64,000 bases of DNA from Blasia pusilla (taxonomy: Eukaryota). Positions 60 to 61,227 of this stretch are shown here, piece after piece (positions within the stretch are counted from its first letter, which is position 1; each line of letters opens with the position of its first letter). Under the pieces are notes generated by a model, which was not told the DNA's origin, did no database searches, and saw only the letters and a list, made by a program, of their open reading frames with translations. The translations under genes were made by a program, and so were the position numbers. The DNA lies in NCBI GenBank assembly GCA_050084515.1, contig CM114271.1, positions 30,132,001 through 30,196,000 of the forward strand. The letters run 5' to 3'.

Positions 60-2460
60 CGCACCAAAATCTCATTGGAGACAACCGAGATTTTTGCAAT
101 CTCCCACCTTTGAAAACGTAGAGGACTATGGAACCCCGGCCTGCCGCCCATCAATCCCCTCCTCTGGATCTATCTCCACCCCACCTCTCAATGGCTCGGT
201 CCTCGCAGCACCCTGAGTCACCACTGCAACAACCTCTATGGGAGCCATATCCATTACACACATCATCGATGGTGCCCACAGATGGGGCAGGTGTGTGAAT
301 GTCACGAGGAGTTGGAGGGGCAACTCTTATGCCGACTTGTAGGGAGTAAGTGTTGACCACGGTTTTGGAGATGGCCACCGCGGTGAGCCAGACTCCTTTA
401 TTTTTCGCAATGGAGTTGGCGAGAGTGGGAGTTAGACCAGCAGAGGTGTTGGCCGCCATGCTGTGTGAGCGTGAAGAGGTGATTATGGGAAGAGACACCC
501 GTCATGGCATGGCTCTCAGTGGGACTATCCTCTACCAAAATTTCCTTCGCATGTGTGTTCTCCTCCAACAACTCTCCTGGCCAACCACCACCATCTGTGA
601 AAGTTGTCAACGTGGTCGATCACCTCGTCCTCCAAACTATACAGGAAATTGACTCATCCGTCCATCGCCTGATCGCCACCCTAGCTGATAAGCAACGGTC
701 TCCTCCCAAAAGTCAAGGATGAATCTTAAGGGATATAACACAGTACTTCCAACCAACACATCGTTCGACTCACATGGTGTCATGATCACACCCGTGCACA
801 CCATTGCACTTTCCATCGCATGCTCACGTTGGACTTTGACAACTATCTCCTTTTGAGTCATATGTTGCGTGGATGATACGCATCCAAAAGAAGTCTATAT
901 TTGGAAGGGACAAGGCTCAATGTTGCCTTTCCATAACCCCAACGCCAAACATGCCACCTTCCCCAACATTAGGGGTTGCGCTCCTTAATCAAGTAGGACG
1001 CGCTGGAGGTGGTACACCCTTCCTATCGGACTAACTAAACGAAACACTCCATCTCAGTTATCTACAACACTACACCTGGTGTCACCATGGCTCGCTCTAT
1101 CATTGCCCTAGCTGACATCTCTACCAACTTCACCACCACAACATGCCATGACTCAGTTGAGGACGTCTCGAGCACCTACACCGAGGGTACGTCCGCCTTT
1201 ATCTCTAAGTAGAGAGAGTCAAGTGACGATAGAGCTTCTAGAACGGAGACGTTGACACCATTGGATACTACACCTGTAGTGTGGCAATGTCCAAAGGAGG
1301 ATGTGAGTCTGAGTGTTAGATCTCTTTGGAGGGATCAACACATTATTAGCACTAGTGCTGTTACAGCCAGACATACGAGTGCATTAGTACATTTAAGTGG
1401 AGAGAGATGAGATTGCATGATGGGTCTCATTGTGCCATGTGGTGAGATTGGTTCAGAGACATCTTAATCTATTGTTGGTATCTGCAATACGAGGTTACCT
1501 ACATTTCGTTGTTGGGGGCGCAAGACCAAGATAGAGTTGGCACCATTCGTTTGGTGATTGCTAGATGGCCATGTCAAGGTTATTTATTACCTGGCCGAGG
1601 ATTTGGATTACAGGATCCAAGGTCAATGATGTTTTGGGAGATGTTGCGAGTATTACGACACTTGCAGGAGAATCAAACATGTCCTCCAATGTACATTCTG
1701 GAGAACGTGCCACTCATGGGAGACACTCGTGCACGGGTGATGACAAGTATGCATCAGGTGAGATTGTGGTTGGGACTTGCCGTATTGCTTGATGTAGCAT
1801 GAGTTGGATTATGCGCACACCGTCCATGGTTGTGGTGGACAAACCTTCACCATCAAAGGTGCTAAGGCAAGCTTCTGATGGAGTTCAGAGAGCACCATAC
1901 TTGATAGTGGATGCAATCTTGGGTCCAAGGCATCGATCTCAAGTGGTGATGTGGGATGATAGAATACTATTGGCAATAGCCAATATGATGGGACAATTGA
2001 GGGCAACTTTACCTATGTTAGTTAACTTCCCAACATCCCATGCCTTTCATTAGTGAGGGCCAAGCATGATTTGGGATAAGGAAATCCAAGCATTAGAAGA
2101 GCCTACTATTGATGAGCGCAAGTGCACCATGGGATTTGCTACGGGTATTATGGTGGTGCCAAATATGACCAAGGCATCACAAAGATGGATCTCAACTGTC
2201 TCACATGGATAGTCAATCTAGGTATGGTTGAGCAAAGAGAGATGAGAGTGTCATCCATGTCGTCACATCCACAAGTTAGCGCAGTGCCTATAGGGTCTGT
2301 AGAGGCATTGGTTGGGGGTGCGGCGAGGAGAGATTGGCACCCATGGACTTCTTGGGACTTTATTCTAGTAGAGAGTGCGGAGGTGACCAGAGTGGCATAT
2401 GTTTATTTTTCAGGTGTAAAACATGATGAGAAAAGTGAGAGTGCAGTGGTTGTGTGAGAG
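60..2460 (+). mobile_element. Degenerate, internally rearranged Ty3/Gypsy element (copy A): post-gag linker, protease (inverted segment about 497-1210) and C5-DNA methyltransferase domain
   Basis: Minus 961-1020 reads RVYHLQRVLLD*GAQPLMLG (aspartic protease LLDSGA motif with a stop). Plus 350-490 VLTTVLEMATAV...AAMLCERE aligns with the pre-protease linker of copies B and C. Plus 1250-2200 carries the DNMT motifs. Confidence 0.85.
1300..2200 (+). pseudogene. DNMT3-like C5 cytosine methyltransferase domain within copy A (frameshifts and stops)
   Basis: Motif I LDLFGGINT (about 1316-1342). Motif IV TIRLVIARWPCQG (PC about 1569-1574). Motif VI YILENVP (about 1692-1712). Motif VIII HRPWLWWTN (about 1817-1845). 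Motif IX EPTIDERKCTMGF (about 2098-2137). Confidence 0.85.
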
Positions 2461-3300: not shown

Positions 3301-4748
3301 TTTCTAATAATATAAACATAAAAGTCATATCTTGATTTTTTAAACATGTAAATTTTGATATTTCCAAATTCTGTTAAATTATTATTTCATAAAGTAATCC
3401 TTAAGAAAGAAATATACTCTTTTTTAAATTTATTCTAACAAATATATATTATGTATGTGACCAAACTTACCTCAATGTTGACTTTGTTCCAAAATCAACA
3501 TTAGATATATTTATCTAACAAAATTCTTGAATCCATGCTTATCTTTTGGATTGCCTCTACTCCTTTGTGTTTGAAGATTGGTACACATACAATGATTTTA
3601 TAGAATATGAATTTTGCAAAAGGACAAGAAAATGATATTTGATCGGTGATTCATGGATTCATGCGACATATCTAGATATTGCAATTCTTATAGGGAAGAA
3701 CGTTAAATATCAAGTTTGCATTCTGCATATCCCATTGATTGCTTTTGACTCATATTTGCCTTCTAATTATGTAGATGTCGATTTCCTATCTATCTAACTG
3801 TTTTCCTAAATTTAATAAGTGGATCTCTCACAATTATATTTAATCTTGTGTATGAGGATAATGAACGAGTGCATGTTATTAGTCTAACTGAAAGTCCATC
3901 ACAATAAGTAGGACTAATTTCTCTACACTCAAGTATAGTTCTAATGAAAATTATATAAAGAAATTATTTCCACTTGCCTTAGGATATTCCATGAATGCCC
4001 ATAAGAGTCAAGGCTAGCGCTCAATGGTTATCGACCCTTATCTCCTAGTTGATTTAGTATGACCTTGTCGCTAATGTTTCACCACCACAAACCAATAATT
4101 TTCGTTCTACACTACAATCTCCTAGCAAGACGAAATGCACTTAGTATCTATTGTTCAAAGGCATGTACCCTACATACTTGTCTTTCAATTGATTGTCATT
4201 TCAGGAAATTCATCTGGGATAGCTACCACTAAATTTGCCCTCTCTTCATACTTGGAAGTTAATTTCTCACCGTGCACACAAGCCAACCTTTTTTAATGCT
4301 AACTATAGCTATATCTTCCTAGGATTTCTTGGAGCATTTTTGGAATCAATTTTTTTCCATGGCTACTCAAATATTTGATTCCAAATTTCGTATTTTGATG
4401 CACGATATCTTATATATTTCTCTTTTTAGATATAATCTTAGGATTTTCAATGGATGCAATTACTTAAACATGTCCAAATTAGATCTATATTCTTTTCATG
4501 CATTCAATATCTCTTCTTGCTATAATTTTTTTTTGGTAATCAATCATTGCTTTATCCTTTTTCTAAATGGCAAGTCATTCTTGTATTGTTATCCATTCAC
4601 CATCCTTATATCATTCAATCATTTCGCCTCTATTCCTAATTAAGTCAATTTCTCCATTCTTCCTTAGAATATTTCAACAGTTCAATCTGCCGTTCTTACT
4701 TGCTAATCAACCATGTTGAAATTGGATTATTTACCTTCATTGTATCAG

Positions 4749-9600: not shown

Positions 9601-12600
9601 CAGTGTGCTGGCGAGATCACTGTTGGAGATTGTCCATGAGGCACTAGAGGTATGAGAGGTAGTTTGTCATTATCTGGTCTTCATTGTGGACCTTTATCAA
9701 TTTTGTTTTGTATGGCTGGATGTTTGGGCTAAGCAAGGGTTGGCTATTGGAACACATCATTATGGTTATGCCTTCAAGGAATGAAACTGTCCTTCCTAAG
9801 CATCATTGCAAAACAGTAGAATGATGAATGTCACAAAGAAAACATCTCTTGCATATCTCACTGACATGTGTAAACTACTGATGCTAAATTTCTCCTCGGT
9901 TGTGAAAAGCCAGTCTAACCTTTTGTCTATATATAGTGTAGCTGTCTTTGTATATCAAATGGTAGGAGTGGATGCTCAAATGTGAAGAACCTTTTCTGTT
10001 CCTAGGAAATGTTTTCATTAGTTGGAGATAATTGCTGGACTAAAACTCATTCCTTAATATCGTCCTGCCAAAAGCTCACTTCTTTTTTGTGCAGGATGCA
10101 TGCTTGTCAACACCAATAACAGCTCTAGAACTTTATCATGCTTCTCGAGATGTAGTTCTTCTTTACCGCGCGATTATCCCAGTCAAGGTGCTGAACTTGT
10201 ATTTTTGTTGCTGCACACGCAGCCTCATGTTTATAGGGCTTGTTAGGGTGTGTCAAAGCAGGGTAACATGGCTTTTTTAATGTAGTTTTCCAGTATTACT
10301 TTACTCATTTGGGAACAGTATCATACCAAAAGTTCCTCTCCTAGGTCCTTTTCCAGTCTCTCCTATCTTTTTAGATCGAGTCCAGCCTTGACACATCCTG
10401 TTCCTTCCACTTGTAGATGTTTATGTACACGAGTGCAGATATAGACAGTTGATAAGGGTTCATAATCCTTGGCAAGTCAGAAAGCGGGGTTCCTACTTAA
10501 TGAACTTTTGTATCCTGCTTTCGTTTGATTCCTCACAGCTAGGTTCAAAGCTGAGCAGCTTAAGCGAAGTTGCAGCATTATGTCACAATGACTGCTTGTA
10601 CATGGCACACGAGCTACTTACTTTTGTGTACCAGGTGTGTTGACTGTACTGTTACTTTGTAATTTCTCTTACCACAGTCTATATTCTCCCTCACGAGATT
10701 TGCTTGTATCTTTTGAAGGTTAGGAACAGATTAGATGGAAATGAGTGTGTTGTACTTAGACCACTTGGCATGCAGCTGTCTCTCTACTTTTGGAGTGAGA
10801 CGATGCACTCTGGATGGTCATTGTGACTGCGATAGTAGGATGGTTTTGGAAAGTGAAGTGATGGACCACATTAGTGAAGCTAGCATGTACTTATTAAGCA
10901 CACCCTGGCATATACTCCTTTGGAAGCCCTGGTGGTAACTCGGATGGTCAATGAGGAATCGAGGATGAGCTCAACCTGAAGGAGGATGGAGAGCACATAA
11001 CTTTTGTTGCATGGAACCTATTTCAGGGTACACAGATGTGTCGTCTCTCAACTTCTCAGGGAGTTCTTTGGCTATACTTGAGCTACACTGATCATGCAGC
11101 ATCTTGAAGCTCAGCCTGGGCACCTAAGAGGAGAGAATTCACTTGTATCTACCTATATGACTTTATTCTGATCCCCATTTGTAAAATCCCGCAGTGGACT
11201 TGTTTCTGCAGTATCAGGAAGCATTGCCTGCGAGCCTGAAGGAGCTATTTACGTTTGTGGACCTGGTACCACTATTTCGTCAGATGGCAAAGGAGGTTTT
11301 TGACCAGCAAATCACCCACTTGACAGCTGATCTCATGCAGGTAACTTGTGTAACTTTAAATTTAAAGAACCTACTGAAAGCACTATTGTGCCCTGAGCAC
11401 ATGGAATAATTTCCAAGAGGATGCTAGGCATTGTTCATTTTGAAACCGGATGGGAGGTCTCCTCGTTGGAGTGTTGTGAAGCATCATTAGTCGGGCAGAG
11501 GTTGGAGAGCCCAATTCTTGTTTATAAAGGGAAAATTGAACTCATGTGTTTTCTTGTGAGAATTACTTGGCTCATATTACCACCAGCCTATGGTGAAGTT
11601 GAGGGTGTTCCTGGCTGTTAATTTGATTCAAGAATACTGCAGCTGATTACACTATGAACATTATGTGGCCAAATCTGCTCCAGATTCTTGATCGTGCCCG
11701 TGGATTCCGATATACCGATGATCAATATGAAGTCACCCAACAAGCTCTTGAAGAAGTTTGTTCTTGCTTCCCTTATTCGATCATCGGGCTTCGAGTATCC
11801 AGCATAGATTCTAAGTGTTTGCTTTAGAAACATTATTCTGTCCACTTTCTTTATGATTTTAGTCATTTGGTATTTTGTGCTAGTTCTTAATCATTACAAT
11901 AAAAGTGTATCTCAGGCGTTTCCCTCACTCCGTGAACTGCTTTAGTTCAGACAAGGAGCTCTGCATTTTTAAATTAGTTGATTAGTGTTCAATGGTTGAA
12001 ATTGTTACCAAAAGCTTGGAACAGGTGTTCGTTTGTAACTTAACAGGGTGAATAAGCCTTGAATCTAAACTACACTTTGGGATGTTGTACAACAAAAGTG
12101 TCTGTGAGTTAAGTAGTTAATAAGTTTTATGATATTGCTACTTCTGATGGCTGAATCTGTAAATTCACTTGAGTTTATTTTATGTAGGTACTCATAAAAT
12201 TCCAGAATATTGCTACATCTTGGAAGCCAGTGCTGCCATTCAACTTGTTCAAGAAGGTTGCAGGTGGTTTGATCAACGTTGTGGTCTGGAGGATTGTCTG
12301 TGAAGTACTTTCTATCAATGACATTGCAGTCCAGGAGGCAGTTCAGGTCGGTTTTTCTCAAGCAACTTCTTCCAATGGCCCTAAACCTTGTACAAGAAAT
12401 TGGAATTCATGTGCAGAAAACTTCCTAGTGATTTGGAGAGTGACATATTGTAGGGCCTGATCTACTGCCCACCATTTCACTAGGATGAAGTTCCTATGAG
12501 ATCATGAGGATTTGACCACCTGGCTCCATGAGATCATTTGACCATTGGCTCTTTCCAGCTGATGCACTGTGCTCTCTGCACCATCCTTCCTTTTGCAGCT

Positions 12601-19019: not shown

Positions 19020-19800
19020 AATTGTTGTGCAGATACACATCGTTGCACAATTTACATTGTTATTCATATTCATATAACAACCACCATCAATCTTCCCAAC
19101 ATATAGGTAGATCCATGCACACATAGAGAGATACTCACACAAATACACCAAAGATCACACAACCGCCCCCTTAACATACGATTAGGTCTCCTAACTCCAT
19201 GTAGGCTGATCACATCCATCAAATATAATCTACTACCCATTGGAGGATGGGTGTGTCCTATATATGTCAAGAGGGGGAGTAAAACACAACATACATAACC
19301 CTGTAAAATAAAACATCACAAAAAAACTTGATGGATGCATCCCTTGCACGTCCATATTATTCCCTCACACATCCATATAATATACACCTCAATCTTGCCT
19401 GTAACGGAGCCAAACTCAGATCTACTCTCCCATCCATGTTTGAAAGATGATAAACTACACAATTGCACACACGATCCTTTCAAGCCATACCATCCAATCC
19501 CTCCAACATGAGGTTTCTGGTAGGTCACACCTTACGCACACAAAATCATGCGCCATGTAGTAGCATCTAGCATCTTCGGTGTCACATGCTTTAAGTACAT
19601 AAGCTCTATGATGCAATTTCCTAATACTTGGATGATAGCCTCCTTCATGAATGGTCACATAATTCAATATTTTCTTATGTTGAGAAATATCTAAGTTCTC
19701 AAATGCTATGGGCATAACATACTCTATGATAAATTTCTACCCTCTAAGAATATGCTTGCAACCATATATCCAAGTCATCAAGATCCAACACCTCCAACAC
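19020..19800 (-). mobile_element. Remnant of the same Gypsy family: integrase C-terminal region, eroded PHD start and 3' non-coding region
   Basis: MPIAFENLDISQH...YVTIHEGGY matches MPMAFENLAITQHRDSLRYATIRG of copy C. KDRVCNC matches KDHVRNC. aaccgcccccttaac...ttaggtc (about 19160) matches aatcgcccccctagc...ttaggtc (about 54650). Confidence 0.75.
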
Positions 19801-36177: not shown

Positions 36178-45859
<9,682 letters not shown>

Positions 45860-48545: not shown

Positions 48546-50029
48546 GTAATCAAGATGACTAACTGCAATGCCATAGTGGCACCAGGAGATTGCCAGTATG
48601 GCATTGCAGTTTTCTGATATCGGGTTAGTGGCATCGACGCCATATGAAGCAGCCGGAGACATGGAGGATCCTGGTAGGATATACGGGGCTGCACAAATGG
48701 AGGCAACCGATGTTGTTACTAGTGGAGTAGCCGTAGAGTTGGATCCACACATAGGGGAGGCGAGGAAACATAGCAAGCTTCCTCAATCTTTTATCTTGTT
48801 CGAAGCGATGAGGACCCCATCAATGGGTCCTGATCAGAGTTCCCATATGGTTGATGTTGTTGGTGTGTAGGCACAGAGGGTTATGGGAGAAGCGAGTGCG
48901 AAAACTCATAGTGTTGATGCAAAGGTGGAGCCCGTGTCGATTACGTTGTTGGGGCGGCCACTACGATGTACCGCGCCCCATGGTCCTCTGTTTCTGATGT
49001 TACGTTGGGAGGTATGTCCGCCGAGGTTTTCTGACTGCCGCTACGTTATGTGAGCGTGGAGTTGGTGTTCCTGCGTCACGTTCTAAGGTGATTTCAGAGG
49101 AGATGATGGACTTGCCCGGCCTTGAGCCTATGCTCAAGCCGTTCACCTCAGTTTCATGGCAAGTTGCGGCTGCTAGGATGGTGGAGATGCTTGCTAGACC
49201 CGCTTTAGAGCATGCCATGGTTTCCCATGAGTTTTTTTGCTCGATAATCAAGGAGAGGTATTCTATTCGGTGAGTCCATCAGGTAGAGTTTTTTTCCCGC
49301 AACGCGTCTTGTTGGATTCAAGAGCTCAACCTCTAATGTTGGGGAAAGCGACGTTGATATGATTGGGCTTAATGAAGTCAGATATGGAGCGTTTTCCATT
49401 CAGGATACATATATCCTTGGATGGAGCAAGTACGACATAATTTATCACTCGATATAAGGTCGTGGTGAGGATTCGACATGTACATCCATTAGATAAGTCC
49501 GTGGTGCGAGTCAAGGCGATACATACCGATGCCGAGTGCTATGACATTTTTGTTGGAGGAAGAGTGTTATATTCGATGTTTTCCCTAGATTACTCGGAGG
49601 AGTCAGGATCCTACAGACCAGGGTGGTAGCTAGGTAATGGGCGACTTAGTTCGTTACTTGTTCGATTCACAGGTGGAGTGACTGAGCGACGGCCAAGAGA
49701 GATGGCGATATTAGGAGCATTCACCAACGGAATCACTTGGCCTAATGATTTGATTGAGGGGCATGTCCATGCAAGGGACACACTTGCACCTGACAATTCT
49801 ATGAAGAGGAGTGTTATGGTAGCCGCATCATTCCTCGGAGGGGAGGTACCGTTGTGGGGCTCAAGTGAGGATCTTTGATGCTCGGGCGATAAGCATGTGC
49901 AGACGGCATGGAGTGAGCCGTTTGCACCAGAGCGTGATGCGTCAAAGAAACCCAAAATAGCAAGAAGTGTTACGATGACTCCCTTAGACACCACACCCAT
50001 TGTGTGTGGCATCCCAAAGGAGGATATTC

Positions 50030-52270
50030 ATGTGTTGGATCTCTTTGGAGGGATCGCCACTGGGTTGGTTGTTATTTTCAAGCATGAGTGCTTGTGCAAT
50101 AGTTTCTATATGTTGACCTTAATGAGGTTGCAAGGCGAGTTTCACTACGATATGTGGTGCACTTTCGCCTCTGTCTCCCCGATTTATTGTCCGTATCCGC
50201 CGCACAAGGATACTAGAGTTCCCTACCAAGGGATAGTTTGTTGTTGGGGGCACAAGACATGAAGCGGGTAGGGACCATTGATTTGGTCATTGCAGGTTGA
50301 CCATGTTATGGCTAGACAAGTGCTCAACGAGGTAGCAAATTAGCTGACACTCCTTTTGGGAGATTATGAGGATCTTGCGACATTGGTAGGAGCACCACTC
50401 ATGTTCTCCGATTTACATCCTAGAGAATGTATCAATTTTGGGCAATTAGAGGTCATTGTGTCGTATAGTAAAATAATCCGCTATGTAAAATTTTGTGTTA
50501 TTAGTGTTAGAGAGAGTTTTATAAGTATTAAGTAGATTAGCTTAGGAAAATAATTTTTTCATGCTTAAACCTCTTTATGGTGCCTCATTTATGCGGGTCC
50601 AACTTTAGGAAAAAAAATTTAATAAATAAGATATGGGAATTTAAAAGTAAAGCGGTGGGTTGGTGTATTATTGAAAATAGAGATAAAGTAGTGTTTGTTG
50701 GTGGCTAGGGTAGTTGGGTAGTTTAGAGGATATAAAGTGCTTGGACAAGATAATATGATATCTACTTGTGTTAAAATGGGATTCAGCAAGCCTTGAGAAG
50801 AAGCCATTTAACACAAGATAAGATTAACCCTATTTTGTATTCTTGTGGATCCTTTTGAGTATATATAAAAGATGGATCTTCAAGGGTTCATCACTTTCAA
50901 CTTCATTTCTTGAGTTTCTCTTTTCACTCTTGAATGGATGACATTGGGTTTGCTTTCTCTTCCAATGAGAGTGGATTACCCTTCTTAGGAGAGTGACTTA
51001 ACCATGATCTATTCTTAGAGAGTTTTCAAGAGTCTGATGTGTGTTTAGATGGTTGTTTGGAAAGACTTGTCATTTTAGGGGAATTCTGGTAATCATAGGG
51101 ATATTGGATGGATTTCGGTTTGTTACTTTTCTAATGAGAGTGGATTACCCCTTTTGGGAGAACAACTCTACATGAATCCATTATTAAGAAGAAAAGAGGA
51201 TGTTTGTCAATCATGGATAGAGGTGAAGCACGAGTCATACTGGATTTTCCTTTTCTTAACCCATACCATGTGAAGGTTTTCTTCGTAGATAGGCATTGGT
51301 TTACTCGTTTTAGAGAGGCATTCATGAATCAGGTTATGCAATCACCAACTTTGGTGATGCTTGCTATTATCACGTATCGAAGGACTTGGGATTATACTTT
51401 ATATATCCTTGTATAAGGATCTAGGGATGTAAATAGGTATGCTAGAGTAGGGTTTAATATTCATTGTGCCAAGCGTAAGTAGTTTACATGGACTACATAG
51501 TTAGGAATTTTGTGGTTAAATGTTATGAAGAAGGGTTCGTCTCCGCACTATCTTGTGTACAAGCGTAAGTAGTTTACATGGACTTCATAGTTAGGAATTT
51601 TGGGATTAAATATTTTGAAGAAGAGATCGTCTCTGCATTATCATTCGTGATTCTTATCGTGAGAGAATTGAGAGTGCATATAGTGATCATGTACTGAATG
51701 GGAGAACTAATTAGAGAATTTACCTTGCATCAATGACCACCGCAAGCGAGACGTTCATCCTTACTCGAAGAAAATCTCTCGACACGATAATGGCTAGTGA
51801 CAAGTGCACATTAGGTGCGTGCCTAGATTGGCCCAACAATGATTTTGGATACGTGTAGTTTCACGAGCACATTGCTTACGTCTATGGTGGACCAACTTGA
51901 TGCCACACTAGGTGTTACAAAGAGCGTATGTGAGAGTGGAGCATCCCTCACATTTATTGATGGATTATGTTCTAGATTTGGGTCATCAATCATAGGCAGT
52001 GAGGTACAATGATCGATCGTCATTGATTGTGGTCAACAAGATTGGGATGTCGTTGGCAACCTTTCCCACTTTTGTGAGTTTTCATGCTTCCTATGTCTAC
52101 AAGGAAGCCAACTTGGCTTCGTTTGGGATGAACTGGCACAAAGGTTGATGGAGCCCAATACAAATGAGTGAGAGCGCGCGATGGGATTTTCCACAAAGTG
52201 ACAGCAGTACCATCACTATCAGAGGCTTCACGGCGTCGTGTTTTGGGTTAGGCAAAGGACCTAAACTACC
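50030..52270 (+). pseudogene. DNMT3-like methyltransferase domain of copy B, split by a solo-LTR-like insertion
   Basis: VLDLFGGIATGL (50032-50067), GTIDLVIAG*PC (PC 50301-50306) and YILENV (about 50414-50431) precede the insertion. LRLWWTNL (about 51876-51899), EPNTNE*ERAMGF (52152-52190) and RRVLG*AKDLN (52233-52266) follow it. Confidence 0.88.
50459..51784. mobile_element. About 1.3-kb AT-rich solo-LTR-like insertion with TGTCG...CGACA ends
   Basis: It interrupts the DNMT reading frame between motifs VI and VIII. Terminal 5-7 bp inverted repeats, a TATA-like tatatataaaa near 50860 and internal duplications (aatgagagtggattaccc x2; caagcgtaagtagtttacatggac x2). The TSD is not clean. Confidence 0.65.
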
Positions 52271-54833
52271 TAACTTGGATAATCATCTTAGGAATAGTTA
52301 AACAACGTCGAATGAGGTTGCAATAGGTCACAACTGCATGTTGCATTGCTGAGCCCCATGCCTACCAAGATGATTGAGGCAATGGCTAGGGGCAAGGTCC
52401 GAGGAGATCAATACACCAAGGATGATGAGAAGAGATACTCTTGGATTTCTAGGGATGTTTTGCAAGCTCTCCAAGAGATGATATTCATCACGTGGAAGGG
52501 ATGAGATTTTGGAGTTGGCTGCAAAGAGCATGAGCAACATCTAGATGAGTTATTTCAACGATTGCAGGAAAATGGCATGAAACTACATCTAGGCAAGTGC
52601 ATGTTCTACTACGACCAGATTAAGTACTTGGGTCATACAATATACCCAAATGGCCTTGGTGTTCAAGAGACAAAGATAGAGGCTATCTCATACATTCCAC
52701 GCCCTACAAATATGACTCAATTTTTTGCATCTATTTGGTTAGAAAAATTCAATCGATTGTACGTATATAAAGGGTTTTAGTTTGACTGCAAAACCACTAA
52801 CGTTTCTGACCAAGATGGATCACGTGAAACACTAGGGGGATGAGCATAGGAGAGCATTTGAGTTGCTCAAGGACAGGTTGACCTTCACGCCTATACTTGG
52901 GAGACCTATCAAGGTGCGTCCTTTCCAATTACATACAAATTAGAGTGTGTAGGGGCTTGGAGAAGTGTTCACCCAATATGATCATGAGGGTAGAGAGTTT
53001 GTGGTGGCCTACGCTAGTCACTCAAGAACCCTCGTATGAGCTATATTTTGTTGTTGAGGCAAAGTATAGCACATATGAGGCTAAGTGTTTGACTACAATG
53101 TGGGCTATTGCACATTTCAAGTGTTATTTATTCGGTAATACAGTTACCATGATTATTGATCTTCAACCATCTTAAGTGGTTCACAAGGAAGTTTGTGAGA
53201 TCACCTCTAATGTTGCAAGAATATGACTTTTAGGTAGTACATTGACGTAGGACGTTCAACCAAGATGCAGATTGTTTAAGTCGTAACCCATGCCCGAGTT
53301 AGCAAGATGCGACTAGAGCTTATTGGCATGGAGAGAGTGATGAAAAAATGGTGTCTAATTGCCTCACGTCAGTCTATTTGAGGTTGTTGGCTATGGAGCG
53401 CTAGAGTGGTGAGACTTTGATGGCGAGTTCTGATGGAGAGCCCTTAGATCCAAAGGTCGGTGAGGAGGTAATATGTGGCCAAGATATCCACAAGGATTTA
53501 GTCTTGGAGTACCTGCATACTAGCAACATCCTGAGCACAATAGGTACTAGAGAGCGGGGTTGGATTCTACAACAAGCCTGCCGATTTTGATGGGAGGGGA
53601 CGTATGTGTTACGAGTTTGGGAGGATGATAGAGTACGTATAGTGCTTCATCCTTCGTAGAGAGCACGTTTGGTGCAGCATGCCCACAAGGAGTTGGGTCA
53701 TTTTAGAGTGAAGCCGATGTACAACATGCTCCATATACACTATTGGTGGTAAAGCATACAGACTGATGTTCAACAGTTTGTTTTCCTGAGCCTAATGCAT
53801 GGTGTGGGATCCAGTTTGGACATCATTCAATGCTCCAACTCCACAATTGCATCCATGTTTGATCATGGGTTAAGGTTATAGATGGAGTTTCGATTTTGCA
53901 AGAATGTTATCTTTGATAGAGCGCCATAGTCGTTATGGTAATGGTCGAGCACTTCTTGAAGTGGATAGACTTGGTTGCATTGCTAGACAAAGCGAGTAAG
54001 GAAGTAGTGTATGCCTTCGTAGATCGAGTGTTGAGCCATTATGGCATAGCAACTAATGTGTTGACAAACCAGAGGAGAAAATTTCACGGGGAATTTCAGA
54101 CCTTATGTGATTAGGCACGCATTGACCATCACACTACTTTACAAGATCATCTTGAGACGAATGGATAAGCGGAGAGTGCGGGATATATTTCCATCTAGTA
54201 TACTCTCATTGGAGAGACAAAATGGAATGGTTTGGAAGGACCATGTGCATAACTGTGCACTATGTCATGTTCTTAGCATTGATGATATGATTGATCGGAG
54301 CTTAGTAGTAGTTCCAATAGGCTTCCGTTGTATGTTATGTGGGTATGCCTATGGTGTAGCTACTATGCTAGTTTTTTATGAGTATTTGAGAGGGTGACAC
54401 ATAGTATGTTTGAGGCTATCTCTTACTAGGATTCGTCCATAATGATGGATGTGTCCCAGATATACACATTATAGATACTAGGTAGTCATAGATCCACACT
54501 TGTGTTTGTGACACATGTCTTGCGCATACACATTGCTACACAAAATACATCGTTGTCACCAAACACACACACACATACACACAAACACGCACAATCCCAT
54601 GCTAACTCATGGCATCCAAACAATGAGACAAGAAGTACCAAAATATCTCCAATCGCCCCCCTAGCTTGTGGTTAGGTCCCTCTAACTCCAGATAGTCATA
54701 TATCCCTACCTATCATGACATACATCTCTCGGACGCTAAGAGCAAGAAGGTCGGGTGCTCATGTGGCCCCATCGTTAGTCGTCTTCTTGTCATCCATGTC
54801 ACAAACACAAGTTGGAATGTAGAACTACCTACT

Positions 54834-54985
54834 CTATGTACATCTAGGACACATCCATTGTTCTTGAGGAACCCTAGTGAGAGGTGGTATCAAGCATGCC
54901 ATATGCCATCCTCTCGAACATCCATCATAGACTAGCATAATGGCTGCACCACGACCAATACCACACAACATACATCGCAAGCCTG
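54834..54985 (-). other. PHD zinc finger at the integrase C-terminus of copy C
   Basis: CMLCGIGRGAAIMLVYDGCSRGWHMACLIPPLTRVPQEQWMCPRC is a C4HC3 PHD pattern with one C>Y substitution, followed by a stop. Confidence 0.9.
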
Positions 54986-57329
54986 TAGGAACTATTGCTA
55001 AGCTTGAATCAATTGTATTTTCAATGTTCGGAAGGTGACACGGCACACAGTTACGCACATGGTCCTTCCAAACCATATCATCACGTTCCTCCAATAAGAG
55101 AACACCTTATGGCAAAACCTCATGCACTCTCAAGATGGTGCGCCTTGCAATCACATCCAACGTCGTGGATGCCGTCTGTTGCAAGTAGACATAGTCTTCC
55201 TAATGAAACCTCCAGATAGTAGATCGATAACCATCCCCCCCTCCCCGCGAATAGTCGCATACCTCAATGAATCTCGATGTTGCGTAATCGCCAAGTTCTC
55301 AAACGCCATGGGCATCACTCTCCCAAACAATTCATCCCTCTGAGAACATGCTTGCATCCTTTCATGAGGGTCATCAAGGTTCAACACCTCACCAATATCT
55401 CGACGAATGGCCGCAAGTAAATCTGGTTCTCGGCCATACAAAAGCAAGCACAGTGAGAAAGACACGAAGGATGCTTGTCTGCAGAATTTGTATCCCATCG
55501 CCAACCACGAAAATAAGAGGTCCCAATCTCCTTGGTGACCTTTCTACAAGCCATACTTGCGTTGTCCTCTCTTCACTGTCTATACAACCCACTCTGCTAG
55601 TCCATCCACCTCAGGATGATTTCGCAAAGTAGTGCAGTGGTGGATCAGTGCCTGATCACACAAGGCTTGAAACTCCCCTTAGCACTCTGTACCCTGGTCT
55701 ATCAACACCTTAGCTGGTGCACTGTAATGACTTAGCACTCGATCTAGGAAGACATACGCTACTCCCTCACTCGCTTTGTCAGGAAATGCAAACCAACTCT
55801 ATCCACTTTGAGAAGTGCTCGACCATCACCAACACATACTGACTATGGCGCTCCATCAAAGGCAAAGGTCCTGTAAATTCCAAACTCCATCTTTAACTTA
55901 AACCCATGATCAGTGGATGCAACTGTGGAGTCGGAGCATTGAACGATGCTCGGACTCGATCACACATCATGCATTTAGCAATAAATTGTTGAACGTCAGT
56001 CTGCATGCCTCGGCTCCAATACTAAATCTAGAGCAAGATGCACGTCCGCTTCACTCCAAAATGGCCCAACTCCTCGTGGGCATGACGCACCAAACGTGCT
56101 CTATACAAAGGATGAGGCACTACACACACTCTACCATCCTCGTACACTCGCAACACATGTGTGCCCTCCCACCGAAACCGTTTGGCTCGCTGTAGGATCC
56201 GATCGCGCTCTCTAGAGCCCACTATGCTCGCAACGCTGCCAATACGCAGGTACTCCAAGACCACTCCATCATTCTGAATGTCTCGGCCATCTGTCGTCTC
56301 CTCACCGACTTCTAGATCTAAGGACTCTCCATGGGATCTCTCCAACGAAGTCTTAGAAATCTTGCTCTCCATAGCCAACAAACCCAAATAGGCTGACGCA
56401 TGCCATCCTGGCACCAACTCCTCATCACTCTCACCATGCCAATGAGCTCCAGTCGCATCTCGCTGATTCGGATCTGGGTTACGACTCAAACCATTAGACT
56501 CTCCATCAAACCTCGCCATCGAAGTCTCAAAAATCTAACTCTCCATAGCTAACAAGCCCAAATAGGCTCGCCAAATAGGTTGACACATGCCATCCTAGCA
56601 CCAACTCCTCATCACTTTGTCTGCCGATTGATAAGTCGGTAATCTCCATACATATGCCTATCAATCTAGTTGCCATGCACATCTTTCTTGGCGGGTATGA
56701 CACTGGAAAATGCATATTCTCCATGCGACATCTCTACTAGTCCTCCGAAAACCAAGTCTTGGCTCCTACTCCGAATTAGAGCCCTCTCCATGTCACTATA
56801 CCTATAGGGTTGACGAAAGATTGTCGTGTCATTCGACAACTCAATGCGGATGTCTGGCCCCTTGAGCGTACCCAAATCCTGCATACTAAATGCAAAACAG
56901 CTCCTATAACTCCTAAGGAAGTGGTGTATCCGACATTGCTCTTCTCTTGTTAACTAAGGGCCCATATTTGGCTCCCAAGTCTCCATAATGACTACGGTAG
57001 GACTCTCCGGCGTGGATGTCGGTGGTTGCTATGGTGCAACCCCGTGTCGGACAACAAAACTCGAGTACTCCCCTACAACCAATTGCAAAATCGGATCTCC
57101 ATGTGCAGTCCCCGAAACCACGCTCGATGCTGTGGCTACCATCTCCTAGCGTACCTGCAAAACATCCCAAGAAGTCCAAGGGGTTCTCTCCCGATCACCC
57201 CTAGTGTGTCGATAGCTCGGGTCTCGCCCCGAGCCACTGCCTCAACCGTCTAGGTAGGCATTGGGCTCACCAACACAAATTTTGTGATCTGTCGATGTTG
57301 GTCAGCTACTCCTAAGCTGAAAATCCATG

Positions 57330-58260
57330 TGAAGCACTTTAGGTCCATCACCTAACCTAGGACATGACGTCGTGGTGGCTCTGAGAGCGACAGTACTGCT
57401 GTCACTCTTGTGGAAAATCCCATCGCTCGCACTTGCTCATCGGCGTTGGGCTCCAGCAACCTCTAAACCTGGTCATCCCAAACCAAGCCAGGTCAGGCCT
57501 CCTTGAATGCATAGGAAGCAGGAAAACTCACCAATGTGGGAAAGGTTGCTTATGGCGTGCCAATGATATTGACTATAATCAACGGCGGTCCATCATCGTG
57601 CGCGACTCCCTGTGATCGATAGCCTAGATCCAATATAGAATCCACTGACAAATCGGAAGGACACTCCTCTCTTGCACAAGCCCTCCGCAACACCTCATGT
57701 GGTACCAAGTTGGTCCACCAAAGACGCGGGCGATATGCTTTAGAACCTACTCGCACGGTATCTAACAACATTGTGGGGTCGATCCATGGGAGCACTCGAT
57801 GTGCACTCATCACCACGCGGGACCTCGAATCGCCCAAAATTGGCACATGCTCCAAAATGTATGCTAGAGAACAAGGCTAATGCTCCTGTAAATGTCGCAA
57901 GATCCACATCATCTCCCAAAACAACCTAGATCGAGTGTCAACTTACCCGCTACCTTGTCTAACACTCGATTGGCCCTGACACCGCCAACTAGCAATGACC
58001 AAGTCTATGGTCCCTATCCGCTCCAAGTCTTGCACCCCCAACAATGAAATATCTCTAGGTAGGGAACTTTGGTAACCGTGAATGGCGGACGCATACTACA
58101 AGTACGGAAAACGGAGCCGTAATTTCACCACATGGTGAAGTCAAGCGTGCCTCACAACATCATCATTCTTCACATATAGATATTGCTACACATGCACTCT
58201 AGCATGCAAAACAGTAGCTAATCCATTGCAAATCTCTCCAAAGAGATCCAACACCCGAAT
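57330..58260 (-). pseudogene. DNMT3-like methyltransferase domain of copy C (contiguous, with stops and frameshifts)
   Basis: IRVLDLFGEICNGL (I), GTIDLVIASWRCQG (IV; Cys at 57979-57981), LFWEMMWIL, YILEHVP (VI), PTMLLDTVRVGSKAYRPRLWWTNL (VII/VIII), EPNADEQVRAMGF (IX), RRHVLG*VMDL (X). Confidence 0.9.
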
Positions 58261-61227
58261 ACCCTCCTATGGGATGCTCCACAGAGTCGGCATTTTGCCG
58301 ATTCTTGGGCTGTTGCCTAAGATAATCTACGTGTCTCCGGGATGGTGTCCAAAGGGGTCATAGCAACACTCTTGCCTACTTGGGATTCCTCTGAACTGTC
58401 ACACTTTAGTGCAAACGTCTCGCTCCACGCAATCTGCACATGCTCAATGGCTAAGCGTCGAAGCTCCTCAATCAAGCCCCAAAGCGGCACCTCTCCTCCA
58501 CAGACTAATGCGGCTACCATGACACCCCTCTCCATAGAAATGTCAGGAATGGGAGTATCCTCTGCATGAATATGACCCTCAATCAAATCACTAGGCCAAG
58601 TGATGGCACTGCTAAATGCTGCTAAGATCGCCATCTCTCTTGGTCGTCGCTCGATCACTACACTTGTGAATCGAACGAGAATTAAGCTAAGGCGTCCATC
58701 ACATGACTGCCATCATAGTCTGTAGGATGCTAATTCCTCCTAGTAATCCAAGGAAAACCCCATCGGGTATAACACTGCTCCACCAACCAAGACGTCGTAG
58801 GACTCTTCATCAGTCATTATCGCCTTGGCTCGCACCACGGACTCATCTGTAGGATGTCCCGGGAAAATCCTCACCACGACCTCCTGTCGGGTGATATACT
58901 ATGTGATACTCCCTCCATCCAAGGAAGTTTGTATCCGAAATGGACAACACTCCACATCGGCTCTCGTCAAGCCCAATCCTTTGAACGACGCTTTTCCCAA
59001 CATCAAGGGTTGCGCTCGTGAATCCAACAAGACGCCCTGGGGACTAAAAGCTCTACCTCTTGGACTTACCAACTGGAAGACCTCTCCCCGGTTATCCAGC
59101 AAACCAACACCATGAGAAGCCATGGCACGCTCTATTGCGGGTCTAGCGGGCATCTCTGCCATCCTAGCAGCCGCAGCCTGCCATGAATCAGACGTGGATG
59201 GCCCGAGCATCAGCTCCAAGGGTAGGTCCATCACCTCTGAACGTGATGCAAGAACTCCAACTCCACGCTCACATAGCGTAGCGGCCAACCGAAAAACCTT
59301 GGCGGACGTACCTTCCAACGTCATAACATCGGAAGGAGAAAATAAAAGAGCGCGGTATACAACGGTGGCCGCCCCCAACAACGTGCTCGACACATGCCCC
59401 TCTTGAGCATCAACAATAGGAGTCGTCGCACTCGCTTCTCCCATCGCCCTCCGTGCCTGCGTACCAACTCTCGAGGAACTATGATCAAGACCCATTGACG
59501 GGGTCCTCATCGCCTCAAACAACGTGAAAGATTGAGGAAGCGTGGCCTATTTCCTGTCTTCCCCTCGCTGTGGATCCAACTCCATGCGTCACAACTTTGG
59601 CGGCCTCCATCTGGGCAACCACGCACATCCAATGAGGATCCTCCATATCTTGGCTGCTCCATATGGTGTCGATGCCACGGATCTGGCATCAAGTAACCTG
59701 AATGCCATAGCGCTAATCTGCTCATGAAGCTATTGTATTTGAGTAGCCATCCCAACCTCACGCCTGACGTCTCTCTTGACGCGTCTAGGTGGTAGGACTC
59801 TTCTTCCTCCACGGGAAACTCTACCACCCTATCGGGAAACTCCAACTCCTCGTCCCCCAATGGGACCATCTGGTGCACGATCTCTAGGCCCACCCCGACC
59901 GGCTACTCGCTCTGGTGCGCCCTTTCACCCTCGGTCCGGACGTAACTAAAGATGTAAACTTAAACATATGGCGCGTGTGTGACCATACCTCTGACAATAG
60001 TCATACTGATAACCTCCTGGTGCAGCACCATCTCCTCCGCCATGCTGAGGCACACTTCCATGACCCTGACGAGTGCAATCGTGTTGATGATGGGCTCCAC
60101 CACATGACCAACAAGTTATCATAGGCGGCTATTGCTGAGCCGCATATGAAGGCGCAGGTCTCTGTGGCACGGCCTCCCGATATCCTCCCTAAGCTCGTGG
60201 TGCCGCAGTCAACCTATCTCGGAGTCCACGTTGCTGCACACATGGTGCAGTCAATCGTGACTGCTCTCGCCCATAACCCATGGTGGCTACGCTCTCCTCC
60301 GCCATGTTGCGCTCACTGTTCTCGCGGTCCTAAAAACATTTCTTAATGTAGGGGAGGTGTTTATAAGAAGCACCCCCTCCGGTACCCGAGTCTGCAGGGT
60401 CCGGTCCAACATTATGTACCATGATTGGATAGCTTGAGCCTCTCTCACTACTTGAGTGACGTTGATCAATCGGCGCAAGCAAGTGTAACCCTCGCGCAAA
60501 CTCTCACCTAGGCGCCTCTGTAAGTTGTGGATGCTCCGCAACTTCTCCGTTCGTACCCCCTGATAGCTCGCCCTCAACTCAGCAAAGAACTCAACCACGG
60601 GGTTGAACCTAGGACCAACCCAACTGGACAATGCAATTGCTCCAATGTGAATTATCCCTCCTAAAACATCTGTGGTGGAAGAGGAAGAAGCCTCTCCTCA
60701 CTCCTCCTCCTCATCTAGGAACGGCTATGTCCATGAGAGATAGTGTAGGTCATAGTAGAATCGCCATGCCTCAATCTCTTGGGCATATCTATGGGAGAAC
60801 TCGAGGTAATCTTCCATGGGTGCCCCATCTAAATGCTAGAACATATTGTTCCATGTTGTAAACAGGTTGAACTCTCTAGAGTTCCTAACCCGTTGTGAGT
60901 CGCGCCAACTCCTAAACTCCAAGATGAAGTCGTGCAACTGTATTGTGCCTACAACACTTGAGAACCTACGTGGTTCTCTCCCTCGGTTATCCATCTCATA
61001 CGCCTAAGCAGTAGGACTACTCAATGTGAGTGGCAAAGCACTACTCAACTTCTCTATGCCCTCCTCCTCGTACGAAAATGACATAGAAGGAGGTCGAGGT
61101 GGTCCCTCACGTGGAGACCCTTGAAACCTCGCACAACTCCGGATAAACCCTCCAGAGCTACTCTTAGGTCCACTATCTCACCTCTCAAAATCCCGAAAGG
61201 ACGCTGTGATGGCCCTCATGCCCCTTG

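Follow-up and report, generated by a model that had tools for sequence, protein, structure and literature searches.

The window examined here, a stretch of 64,000 nucleotides from Blasia pusilla (contig CM114271.1), contains at least four decayed copies of one Ty3/Gypsy-type retrotransposon, all of which are pseudogenes. The order of the element is gag, protease plus a Dnmt3-like cytosine-5 DNA methyltransferase (DNMT), a stop codon, reverse transcriptase (RT), RNase H, and an integrase ending in a PHD finger. This PHD finger is a conserved part of the integrase and is under purifying selection; its pairing with the DNMT extends over a large clade that comprises green algae as well as non-seed plants.

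Decayed Copies of the Element in the Window

The first-pass annotation had read the integrase tail of one copy, here called copy C, as a PHD finger and had suggested the PF00628 profile as a check. The finger, encoded in a 90-aa open reading frame (ORF; window positions 54834-55106, minus strand), matches this profile with a score of 34.6 bits, the Pfam cut-off being 24 (E 2e-8). Seven of its eight zinc ligands are intact in the translation, the third Cys being replaced by Tyr. The conserved segment that had been noticed ahead of the finger, WKDHVRNCVPCHLP, is present on its N-terminal side; its counterparts are WKDHVHNCALCHVL in copy B and KDRVCNCVVYHL in copy A, and it is almost invariant across nine database relatives. 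The copies were mapped mainly against L055, a near-intact metagenome locus (Table 1).

The integrase and the PHD finger of copy C lie in different frames as the result of a single frameshift near 55250, and the stretch from integrase to PHD carries four in-frame stops (55639 to 54980), two in the block of the C-terminal domain (CTD) and linker and two in the integrase block upstream of it, where Pfam returned a weak Integrase_H2C2 match on the ORF 56028-56534. A deletion has removed the RT core together with RNase H (L055 ORF3 residues 145-491); the block that begins with residue 492 resumes after 114 bases. The DNMT of copy C shares 41% identity with L055 ORF2 (tblastn, E 4e-68) and has DNMT motifs visible in its translation, and a CX2CX4HX4C zinc knuckle can be read in the gag ORF 59946-60128. 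RNA reads from three runs carrying the same species label cover copy C to a depth of about 1 at most; since nearly all of them are 95-99% alike and fit only in part, they probably come from other copies.

In copy B, some 1.3 kb without a counterpart in copy C separates the two parts of the DNMT (50064-50348 and 51861-52332), and the integrase stops at L055 ORF3 residue 787, with residues 788-938 missing. The eroded PHD remnants that the first-pass annotation had recognized in copy B and near 19350-19400, here copy A, were both recovered. That of copy B has three in-frame stops and has lost three of the eight ligands, and the surrounding segment (54173-54499) is 73% identical at the nucleotide level to 55131-54797 of copy C. 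The remnant of copy A extends to the N-terminal half of the finger only; positions 19649-19794 match 55249-55390 of copy C at the nucleotide level. Copies B and C map in the Ty3/Gypsy pol order protease-RT-RNase H-integrase (tblastn), and no terminal repeats were found around either of them in the window.

Table 1. Positions in the window of the four decayed copies and their domains
Feature	Position	Strand	Basis and remarks
Copy C, C4HC3 PHD finger	54840..54974	-	residues 45-89 of ORF 54834-55106, aligned to the L055 PHD
Copy C, integrase C-terminal SH3-like barrel and linker including WKDHVRNCVPCHLP	54975..55253	-	tblastn, L055 ORF3 residues 898-1034
Copy C, integrase: H2C2 zinc-binding part, rve core, post-core helices	55244..56501	-	tblastn, L055 ORF3 residues 492-903
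Copy C, N-terminal RT remnant	56615..56983	-	tblastn, L055 ORF3 residues 22-144
Copy C, in-frame stop between DNMT and RT	57029..57031	-	TAG CAA CCA; fits UAG CAR YYA
Copy C, Dnmt3-like cytosine-5 DNA methyltransferase domain, with stops	57292..58290	-	tblastn, L055 ORF2 residues 285-617
Copy C, aspartic protease region	58653..59174	-	tblastn, L055 ORF2 residues 19-194, E 3e-21
Copy C, gag	59946..60967	-	tblastn, L055 ORF1 residues 90-324 at 60332-60967
Copy B, protease and DNMT	49297..52332	+	tblastn to L055
Copy B, RT, RNase H, integrase	52508..54174	+	tblastn; Pfam RVT_1, RT_RNaseH and rve fragments
Copy B, end of integrase CTD and eroded PHD	54173..54499	+	alignment to L055
Copy A, remnant: integrase C-terminal region and N-terminal half of PHD only	19315..19730	-	tblastn, E 5e-10 to 9e-12
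Copy D, rearranged	628..2244		tblastn, L055 ORF2; protease-like 628-1142 (-), DNMT-like 1473-2244 (+)

In-Frame Fusion of the PHD Finger to the Integrase in Intact Relatives

Since all copies in the window are pseudogenes, relatives were needed to determine whether integrase and PHD finger are read in one frame. A single ORF of 1047 aa in L055 (ORF3) comprises RVT_1, RT_RNaseH, Integrase_H2C2, rve, and PHD (Pfam); its finger scores 39.9 bits against PF00628 and possesses all eight zinc ligands. The PHD also exceeds the Pfam cut-off in ORFs of 825 aa (L057) and 487 aa (L056), and it does so in 15 of the 17 long relatives scanned. Shorter ORFs in which the end of the integrase is joined to the finger were found in Marchantia polymorpha (Mp_2g13720) and in eight further cases. 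The in-frame fusion proposed for the element is thus borne out, by its intact relatives only; in no window copy do integrase and PHD share one open frame.

The SH3-like CTD of the integrase runs directly into the C4HC3 PHD finger, which forms the C-terminus of the protein. Structure models of relatives portray the CTD ahead of the finger as a small beta-barrel resembling the CTDs of the PFV and MLV integrases and Tudor domains. Algal relatives have an extension behind the PHD, for which a Tudor-like nature is suggested by no more than a faint Pfam match to PF21743 (E 0.032) in one of seven; the matches of a wide fold search fell on the integrase barrel (residues 106-179). When the window ORFs, L055-L057, and 17 relatives were scanned with Pfam, they matched PF00628 and returned neither a Chromo family nor an ADD domain match, in keeping with the earlier proposal that the PHD occupies the place at the integrase C-terminus where chromoviruses have their chromodomain.

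The claim that DNMT and PHD belong to the same element is upheld by L055 as well, where ORF2, encoding the protease and the DNMT (PF00145, E 5e-12), lies upstream of ORF3 in the same frame with a single TAG between the two. In the liverwort-type element, the DNMT is flanked by protease and RT, and the PHD follows some 1100 residues later.

Conservation of the PHD Finger and Its Predicted Ligand

A total of 356 protein clusters (50% identity) match the PHD tail at E<=1e-30, and the strict C4HC3 pattern is present in 137 of the best 150 of these. Across 28 diverse tails, each of the eight ligand columns is fully or almost fully invariant. Because an open frame is found in only two of 37 standard-length tails of the liverwort type, dN/dS was taken on the L055 subfamily; for the last 50 codons it amounts to 0.13-0.15 (about 0.14), as calculated from the five of ten pairs in which dS was unsaturated and pN was not zero, the L056 pairs being saturated in dS.

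Among the matches listed, the solved PHD fingers nearest to that of the element are binders of the unmodified histone H3 tail, and from this resemblance the same specificity is predicted for it. The best 60 of 109 sequence matches in the PDB include CHD4, PHF12, PHF21A/BHC80, KAT6A, and DPF2, as well as the KDM5 "lid," ATXR5, UHRF1, AIRE, and BAZ2. Among the fold matches listed, DPF2 superimposes at 0.7 Å, ATXR5-H3 at 0.9 Å (45% identity), and BHC80 at 1.2 Å; BAZ2A with an unmodified H3K4 peptide and UHRF1 with an unmodified H3 N-terminal tail are found there too. Several H3K4me0 readers make use of an acidic side chain immediately ahead of the first Cys; the family has GLPC or GLRC at this point, with no acidic residue. 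Readers of the cage type carry a Trp two residues before the zinc-binding His, a position at which the family mostly has Gly, with Ala or Pro in some cases. No histone H3 gene was found in the window or in the 80 related loci.

The DNMT and the Junction Stop

In the PDB, the DNMT is best matched by DNMT3A, 3B, and 3C (E about 1e-8), with bacterial enzymes and DRM ranking lower, and its motifs I, IV (PCQ), VI (ENV), VIII, IX, and X follow one another in unrearranged order. The stop between DNMT and RT occupies one conserved place in 23 related loci, where it is TAG (17) or TAA (6) and is followed by CAA; the general context in intact relatives is UAG-CAA-YYN. Gag-protease-DNMT ORFs of 1250-1450 aa end near this junction, as shown for six that have L055-like C-termini. 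UAG_CAR_YYA is a described readthrough motif (PMC3542737); liverwort-type loci have CAA CCC after the stop and fit five of its six bases. The context of the junction stop is conserved, and the stop is predicted to be leaky. It is not universal, since the relative P0037 reads from gag through integrase without a stop; its ORF ends where the PHD would begin.

Extent of the PHD-DNMT Pairing

A DNMT is located upstream in 28 of the 32 related loci that have at least 3.8 kb before the match, the homology of the other four ending inside RT. A DNMT was also found in 31 of 34 representative database polyproteins in which 1150 aa or more precede the PHD. DNMT and PHD are consequently not features of different subfamilies, an outcome that would have spoken against the first-pass annotation. 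Two PHD-tailed relatives (P0253 and P0255) lack any DNMT even with the HMMER filters off. Named hosts are Marchantia, Calypogeia, Sphagnum, Closterium, Tetradesmus, and Hariotina, and one metagenome scan alone yielded 199 relatives. The locus counts overstate independence because some of the 80 loci look like one place assembled twice (probably L066/L067, L068/L070, L032/L036, and L052/L053).

A quick tree of 47 integrase-to-PHD stretches, from which P0037 was excluded for want of a PHD, is unrooted and poorly resolved along its backbone. Type 1 comes out as a single clade (SH-aLRT 99) that joins the DNMT-less rows with a support of only 82; the row P0130 bears the label "noDNMT" solely because its ORF starts at RT. 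Present-day activity in this host is doubtful, since the window copies are dead, so few of the liverwort-type tails are open, and a full C4HC3 in an open frame is retained by 38 of the 80 loci.

Possible Roles of Reader and Writer

We consider it moderately probable that the PHD finger aims integration, that the DNMT is a separate upstream product, and that both serve one silent-chromatin strategy. Following leaky readthrough and protease cleavage, the PHD would stay on the integrase and tether the integration complex to nucleosomes with a K4-unmodified H3 N-terminal tail, and hence to chromatin away from active promoters. The DNMT would be produced from the upstream frame, the more abundant of the two, and would methylate the element's own cDNA or the new insertion, as put forward for KnitGypsy-Dnmt3 (PMC5890265). 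Reader and writer would then act as separate proteins in one strategy, to land in silent chromatin and to look like it, and would not constitute one ADD-DNMT3-like enzyme. The PHD looks like an accessory of the integrase rather than a guide of the DNMT, because the latter lies about 1100 residues off and before the stop and because two PHD-tailed relatives are devoid of it. A wider evolutionary reading can be offered only tentatively: an old Gypsy-type clade of chlorophytes and streptophytes would carry an epigenetic kit complete in itself, whose PHD would pick K4-unmethylated nucleosomes to land in and whose Dnmt3-like enzyme, made in excess ahead of the leaky stop, would methylate the new copy, so that the element would choose and write its own silent chromatin; the PHD would be the earlier or more stable component, as the existence of DNMT-less relatives suggests, and the DNMT would have moved within pol at least once.

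The ADD domain of animal DNMT3 enzymes reads the unmodified H3K4 tail, and the first-pass annotation had drawn a parallel to it. Were the PHD to work in this manner, it would read the H3 tail so as to position or activate the DNMT of the element, and targeting of integration would be secondary. Reader and writer do occur together in most loci and long proteins (28 of 32 and 31 of 34), and the PHD resembles readers of unmodified H3, the specificity that ADD has as well. Moreover, algal relatives show the order RT-RH-DNMT-INT-PHD (42 of the 47 tree rows); since the DNMT directly precedes the integrase in them, they may make a single DNMT-integrase-PHD protein and hence possess an ADD-like coupling. 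In the liverwort-type element, however, the finger is a plain PF00628 PHD with no ADD domain in the Pfam scans, RT, RNase H, and integrase separate it from a DNMT that precedes the stop, and P0253 and P0255 have the finger and no DNMT. The parallel is accordingly weaker than had been claimed, and we regard an ADD-like function as unlikely, if worth keeping in mind. About equally unlikely is a PHD that does not read histones at all and instead serves as a zinc module for a host factor or nucleic acid, or as a stabilizer of the integrase CTD; some PHD fingers have non-histone partners, and UHRF1 PHD structures with PAF15 and Stella peptides are among the fold matches listed, yet the closest solved relatives among these matches are overwhelmingly binders of the H3 tail, and the finger sits in the position of the chromovirus chromodomain, itself a histone reader.

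PHD fingers include many readers of H3K4me3, and recognition of such a modified tail would send insertions to active chromatin or promoters. Cnidarian retrotransposons have PYGO-like PHDs that are said to recognize H3K4me in a survey (10.1101/2021.11.30.470311). No classic H3K4me3 reader, however, is found among the best 60 of the 109 sequence matches or the listed fold matches (one match listed, Ehd3, was solved with an H3K4me1 peptide), and the position of the cage Trp is mostly Gly, so that we deem this reading improbable. That the finger was captured by chance, or reflects errors of assembly or annotation in a few copies, could be argued from the window PHD being out of frame with its integrase; this reading has virtually no probability left and is ruled out by the 199 relatives of a single metagenome scan, the 356 clusters, the continuous RT-to-PHD ORFs such as that of L055, and the purifying selection evident from dN/dS.

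A DNMT-bearing retrotransposon of known type is found here to possess a further chromatin module in the form of a conserved PHD reader borne by its integrase, and the value of this finding lies in the family rather than in the window locus, because the window copies are dead. The large clade includes the model plant Marchantia polymorpha, for which chromatin and methylation maps and transformation exist; two questions therefore become directly testable, namely whether readers other than chromodomains can steer retrotransposon integration in plants, and why a parasite should carry an enzyme that normally silences it.

Relation to Known Elements

Combining a reader and a writer in one element has precedent, since the EpiLTRs, as far as the accessible part of their description goes (10.64898/2026.05.21.726589), are LTR elements that unite DNA methyltransferases with a chromatin-targeting reader. 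They differ in having a DAM adenine methyltransferase, a DNMT4-related DNMT, and a chromodomain, and in their Euglena/Collodictyon-type hosts, whereas the present family combines a Dnmt3-like DNMT with a PHD in green plants. Animal ADD-DNMT3 likewise joins a PHD-type reader to a Dnmt3-type catalytic domain; ADD, however, is a composite of a GATA-like and a PHD part that adjoins the catalytic domain within one enzyme, while in the element a plain PHD is attached to the integrase, a long way from the DNMT and with a stop codon in between. Chromoviruses such as MAGGY (Gao et al., 2008, cited after 10.1101/2021.11.30.470311) also fuse a histone reader behind the CTD barrel and provide a precedent for a reader-tailed integrase that aims integration. 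Theirs is a chromodomain for H3K9me rather than a PHD zinc finger with a predicted preference for the unmodified H3 tail, and they have no DNMT. The same survey, in its accessible part, reports PHD and Chromo as the commonest readers associated with RT/integrase domains across eukaryotes; its named PHD examples are cnidarian and PYGO-like, and no DNMT-bearing element of plants or algae appears in that part.

Our literature search, the scope of which was sources other than subscription papers and Repbase, found no printed description of a Gypsy element with both PHD and DNMT, and PHD is mentioned zero times in Neumann 2019 (PMC6317226). The statement of the first-pass annotation that PHD-tailed Gypsy integrases are known in some non-seed-plant lineages thereby found no confirmation. 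The family most likely belongs to the KnitGypsy-Dnmt3 lineage described in 2018 from Klebsormidium nitens (PMC5890265), at which time DNMT-bearing retrotransposons were presented as a curiosity of one charophyte and dinoflagellates. Its text, legends, and one supplement make no mention of a PHD, Marchantia, or chlorophytes, and place the acquisition "in the K. nitens lineage," in contrast to the liverworts, moss, zygnematophyte, and chlorophytes recorded here. No K. nitens protein was present among 62 and 36 matches from word-based searches that scored part of the candidates. The Ty3/Gypsy pol order is seen in L055 and relatives (Pfam); L055 and L021 showed no terminal repeats within the sequence examined. 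KnitGypsy-Dnmt3 shares with the present family the Gypsy type, an unrearranged Dnmt3-like DNMT within the pol frame, and a streptophyte host. It further has A-coding-B-A-B repeats as in DIRS/Ngaro, and the relatives L018 and L050 possess the same split direct repeats rather than two identical flanking LTRs.

Decayed Copies of the Element in the Window

The first-pass annotation had placed a PHD finger behind the integrase of a DNMT-bearing Ty3/Gypsy element. This finger is real: it forms the C-terminal end of a 90-residue ORF of copy C (54834-55106, minus strand), of which residues 45-89 (window 54840-54974) match the Pfam model PF00628 with an E-value of 2e-8 (34.6 bits; cut-off 24). Mapping with the proteins of L055, a near-intact relative from a metagenome, recovered the eroded fingers of copies B and A as well, and the "KDHVRNCxPC" segment ahead of the finger is equally genuine. 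Copy C retains seven of its eight zinc ligands, Tyr replacing the third Cys.

Copies B and C, delimited by self-comparison of the window and mapped with the L055 proteins, are oriented tail to tail and share four matching blocks of 72-76% identity. In copy C, the RT core and RNase H have been deleted between the RT remnant and the integrase. Copy B shares this domain order and is damaged in three places: its DNMT is interrupted by additional DNA of about 1.3 kb, integrase residues 788-938 are deleted, and its PHD finger (54173-54499, plus strand) contains three stops and has lost three ligands. No terminal repeats flanking copies B or C were detected by self-comparison of the window. Every copy in the window is dead, and the PHD finger does not share one open frame with the integrase; copy C contains four in-frame stops and, near 55250, a frameshift. 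The observed/expected ratio of CpG (0.59 across the window, 0.63 in copy B, and 0.73 in copy C) shows moderate depletion, and copy B departs from copy C mostly by G-to-A and C-to-T changes (337 versus 216 in the opposite direction). The closest named proteins come from Marchantia.

Coordinates of element copies in the window and of features in related metagenome loci
Feature	Position or length	Strand	Basis or content
Copy A, integrase end and half of PHD finger only	19730-19315	-	L055 mapping
Copy B, extent	48554-54513	+	self-comparison
Copy C, extent	59751-54797	-	self-comparison
Copy C, gag	60967-60332	-	L055 mapping
Copy C, protease	59174-58653	-	L055 mapping
Copy C, DNMT	58290-57292	-	L055 mapping
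Copy C, junction stop	57029-57031	-	TAG CAA CCA
Copy C, RT, first 120 residues	56983-56615	-	L055 mapping
Copy C, integrase	56501-55244	-	L055 mapping
Copy C, integrase C-terminal domain and PHD	55253-54840	-	L055 mapping
Copy D (fourth copy), rearranged or nested	628-2244	both	protease-like piece (-) adjoining DNMT-like piece (+), same family
L055, ORF1	701 aa		gag-like, two CCHC knuckles
L055, ORF2	728 aa		aspartic protease, PF00145 DNA_methylase (E 5e-12)
L055, ORF3	1047 aa		RVT_1, RT_RNaseH, Integrase_H2C2, rve, PHD (E 4e-10)
L055, junction stop	4661-4663
L018, split direct repeats	1768-2074, 10378-10971
L050, split direct repeats	2430-2757, 10827-11395

Integrase, PHD Finger and DNMT in Intact Relatives

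Since no window copy retains an open integrase-PHD frame, the reading frame could be assessed only in intact relatives. A database search with the 90-residue ORF yielded nine relatives at E<=1e-3 among 79 candidates (55-70% identical), Mp_2g13720 of Marchantia polymorpha among them, and in all nine the post-core integrase region is continuous with the PHD finger. A metagenome scan with the alignment of these proteins matched 432 stretches, 199 of which encode a relative; the best 80 of the 199 were kept as loci. L055, an 8.4-kb contig, contains three long ORFs, the second and third of which share a frame and are separated by one TAG. Integrase and PHD finger lie in a single ORF in L055 (1047 aa), L057 (825 aa), and L056 (487 aa); hence, as the annotation had supposed, intact copies read from integrase into finger in one frame.

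The annotation also assigned DNMT and PHD finger to the same subfamily, and this held in loci and proteins alike. In 32 of the 80 loci the match is preceded by at least 3.8 kb, and 28 of these 32 carry a DNMT upstream in the same orientation (coverage 0.85-1.0), the number of independent loci being lower because L066/67, L068/70, L032/36, and L052/53 appear to be duplicate assemblies of one place. In the remaining four loci (L017, L033, L068, and L070) all homology ends inside the RT, so that they are 5'-truncated rather than DNMT-free. A search with the DNMT region returned 62 proteins, many of them single ORFs of 1650-3000 aa in which PF00145, PF00078, PF00665, and PF00628 occur together. 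With the integrase tail as query, an exhaustive HMMER search reached 7501 hits at E<=1e-3, of which 1210 passed E<=1e-10 and 356 passed E<=1e-30; a strict C4HC3 pattern is present in 137 of the best 150, and 31 of the 34 proteins among these 150 with at least 1150 residues ahead of the finger contain a DNMT. One of the three lacking it is P0132, a chimera that contains two integrases. The other two, P0253 and P0255, are clean RT-RNaseH-integrase-PHD polyproteins without a DNMT anywhere, even with the HMMER filters off. As a rule, then, PHD finger and DNMT occur as a pair, and the finger can also occur without a DNMT.

A Conserved Stop Codon between DNMT and RT

The DNMT-to-RT junction carries one in-frame stop at the same place in 23 loci (TAG in 17, TAA in 6), always followed by CAA and then by CCC, TCA, TCC, or CCT. 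This context (CAA YYN) fits or nearly fits UAG CAR YYA, the type I readthrough motif known from plant viruses (PMC3542737). In several assemblies, gene callers predicted gag-PR-DNMT ORFs about 1250-1450 aa long, six of which have C-termini similar to that of L055 ORF2; the database protein P0037 has no stop at this junction. From these sequences we infer that the DNMT would be made together with gag and protease, and RT-integrase-PHD only upon readthrough. If readthrough occurs at this stop, the recoding site of the family lies after the DNMT, not after gag.

Hosts, Architectures and Kinship of the DNMT

Named hosts are Marchantia polymorpha, Calypogeia fissa, Sphagnum fallax, and Closterium sp. 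NIES-54, together with the chlorophytes Tetradesmus deserticola (ORFs from transcripts) and Hariotina reticulata. The type 1 layout, protease-DNMT-RT-RNaseH-integrase-PHD, is found in the window, L055, and P0068, and in P0037 as far as its ORF extends, which ends before the PHD finger. Type 2, RT-RNaseH-DNMT-integrase-PHD followed by 100-500 further residues, accounts for 42 of 47 tree rows. The DNMT lies between RNase H and integrase in most algal and metagenome relatives (P0039-P0068, P0141-P0274), and between protease and RT in the liverwort type. Since the DNMT domains of both layouts are homologous (33-41% identity), the domain has changed place within pol. A quick tree of 47 integrase-to-PHD stretches, left unrooted, places type 1 in one clade (SH-aLRT 99); the backbone of the tree was not resolved.

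Past the PHD finger, type 2 proteins share a conserved stretch (G-x-V..., W/Y-G, YF-x-V-x-F-DDG; P0182 about 285-340, and the same region of P0208, P0229, P0246, and P0188), predicted as four beta strands (pLDDT 75-92) and with a faint Tudor hint in one of seven (Pfam, E 0.032); it may be a second reader domain. P0040 (2995 aa) carries a G-patch (PF01585) between DNMT and integrase (residues 2030-2073, E 3.7e-5, 24 bits versus a cut-off of 22).

The best solved-structure matches of the DNMT are DNMT3A, 3B, and 3C (E about 1e-8), ahead of M.HaeIII, M.HhaI, and plant DRM, and nine diverse members conserve motifs I, IV (GWPCQ), VI (ENV), VIII, IX, and X without any rearrangement of their order. 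In P0057, motif IV reads GWECQG with the catalytic Cys kept. The Dnmt3-type motif order agrees with the description of the Klebsormidium nitens element KnitGypsy-Dnmt3 by de Mendoza et al. (2018; PMC5890265), as does the unusual A-coding-B-A-B layout of split direct repeats that L018 and L050 possess in place of ordinary LTRs. Because of this layout and the Dnmt3-type domain in pol, the family likely belongs to the KnitGypsy-Dnmt3 lineage. The same repeat layout has been reported for DIRS/Ngaro. No K. nitens protein was among the 62 and 36 matches of two word-based database searches, in which part of the candidates were scored.

Precedents exist for PHD-transposon fusions, for DNMT-bearing elements, and for reader and writer in one element. 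According to the Grau-Bove preprint (10.1101/2021.11.30.470311), PHD and Chromo are the commonest readers in fusions with transposon domains, examples coming from cnidarians, and a 2026 preprint (10.64898/2026.05.21.726589) describes "EpiLTRs" with DAM, DNMT, and chromodomain and cites "streptophytes (Gypsy-DNMT3)". Neither PHD nor Marchantia is mentioned in the text, legends, and one supplement of PMC5890265, and neither PHD nor methyltransferase in Neumann 2019 (PMC6317226). In the openly accessible literature, we found no description of a PHD-plus-DNMT Gypsy, nor of the breadth of this pairing or of the stop codon.

Reader Class and Possible Role of the PHD Finger

Across 28 diverse tails, all eight ligand columns show little or no variation, and the same holds for a Met located three residues ahead of the third Cys, the Trp before the seventh Cys, and a Pro-Cys-His just upstream. 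The last 50 codons of the L055 subfamily show dN/dS values of 0.13-0.15 in the five pairs whose dS is unsaturated and whose pN is not zero. The L055 tail, as modelled by AlphaFold (mean pLDDT 78.9; about 90 across most of the finger), consists of a small beta-barrel followed by the PHD finger. The barrel of a second model, P0182, matches Tudor, SH3, and KOW folds and the integrase C-terminal domains of PFV and MLV; "KDHVRNCxPC" is thus the end of an ordinary integrase C-terminal domain plus linker.

By sequence, the closest PHD fingers (best 60 of 109 matches) are those of CHD4, PHF12, PHF21A/BHC80, KAT6A, DPF2, the KDM5 "lid", ATXR5, UHRF1, AIRE, and BAZ2. The fold superposes on DPF2 (0.7 A), ATXR5 with H3 (0.9 A, 45% identity), and BHC80 (1.2 A), and likewise on BAZ2A bound to an unmodified H3K4 peptide and UHRF1 in complex with an unmodified H3 tail. 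Classic H3K4me3 readers were found neither among these best 60 sequence matches nor among the fold matches listed. H3K4me3 readers carry a cage Trp at a known position, which is mostly Gly across the family. Several H3K4me0 readers use an acidic residue before the first Cys; the family PHD lacks it. By resemblance, this points to a reader of H3 tails unmethylated at K4.

Building on the observed anatomy, PHD-DNMT co-occurrence, conservation, and selection, we propose that the PHD finger would remain on the mature integrase and tether it to nucleosomes with K4-unmethylated H3 tails, as a counterpart of the chromodomain, which anchors chromovirus integrases to H3K9me chromatin. The DNMT would be produced in excess and would methylate the element's own DNA. 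The annotation had drawn a parallel to ADD-guided DNMT3; the position of the PHD finger, the stop codon between DNMT and PHD, and the DNMT-less relatives argue that it most likely serves the integrase rather than an ADD-like control of the DNMT. In the algal layout the DNMT abuts the integrase, and a single writer-integrase-reader protein is possible there.

Other Features of the Window

The homology between copies B and C stops about 37 bases past the PHD stop, with no 3' repeats. Their 3' ends are separated by a 284-base spacer (54514-54796) with a CA-rich run at about 54555-54596. DNA-read depth on this spacer is about 120 versus 1-9 nearby (run with the same species label), which indicates that it is part of a high-copy repeat. 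An ORF at 2913-3335 (plus strand, 140 aa) has a weak PIF1-like helicase match below the cut-off (E 0.0046) and may be a Helitron remnant. Self-comparison further revealed two short tandem duplications of about 81-90 bases with 89-91% identity (42284-42446 and 51470-51642), the latter within the additional DNA that interrupts the copy B DNMT.
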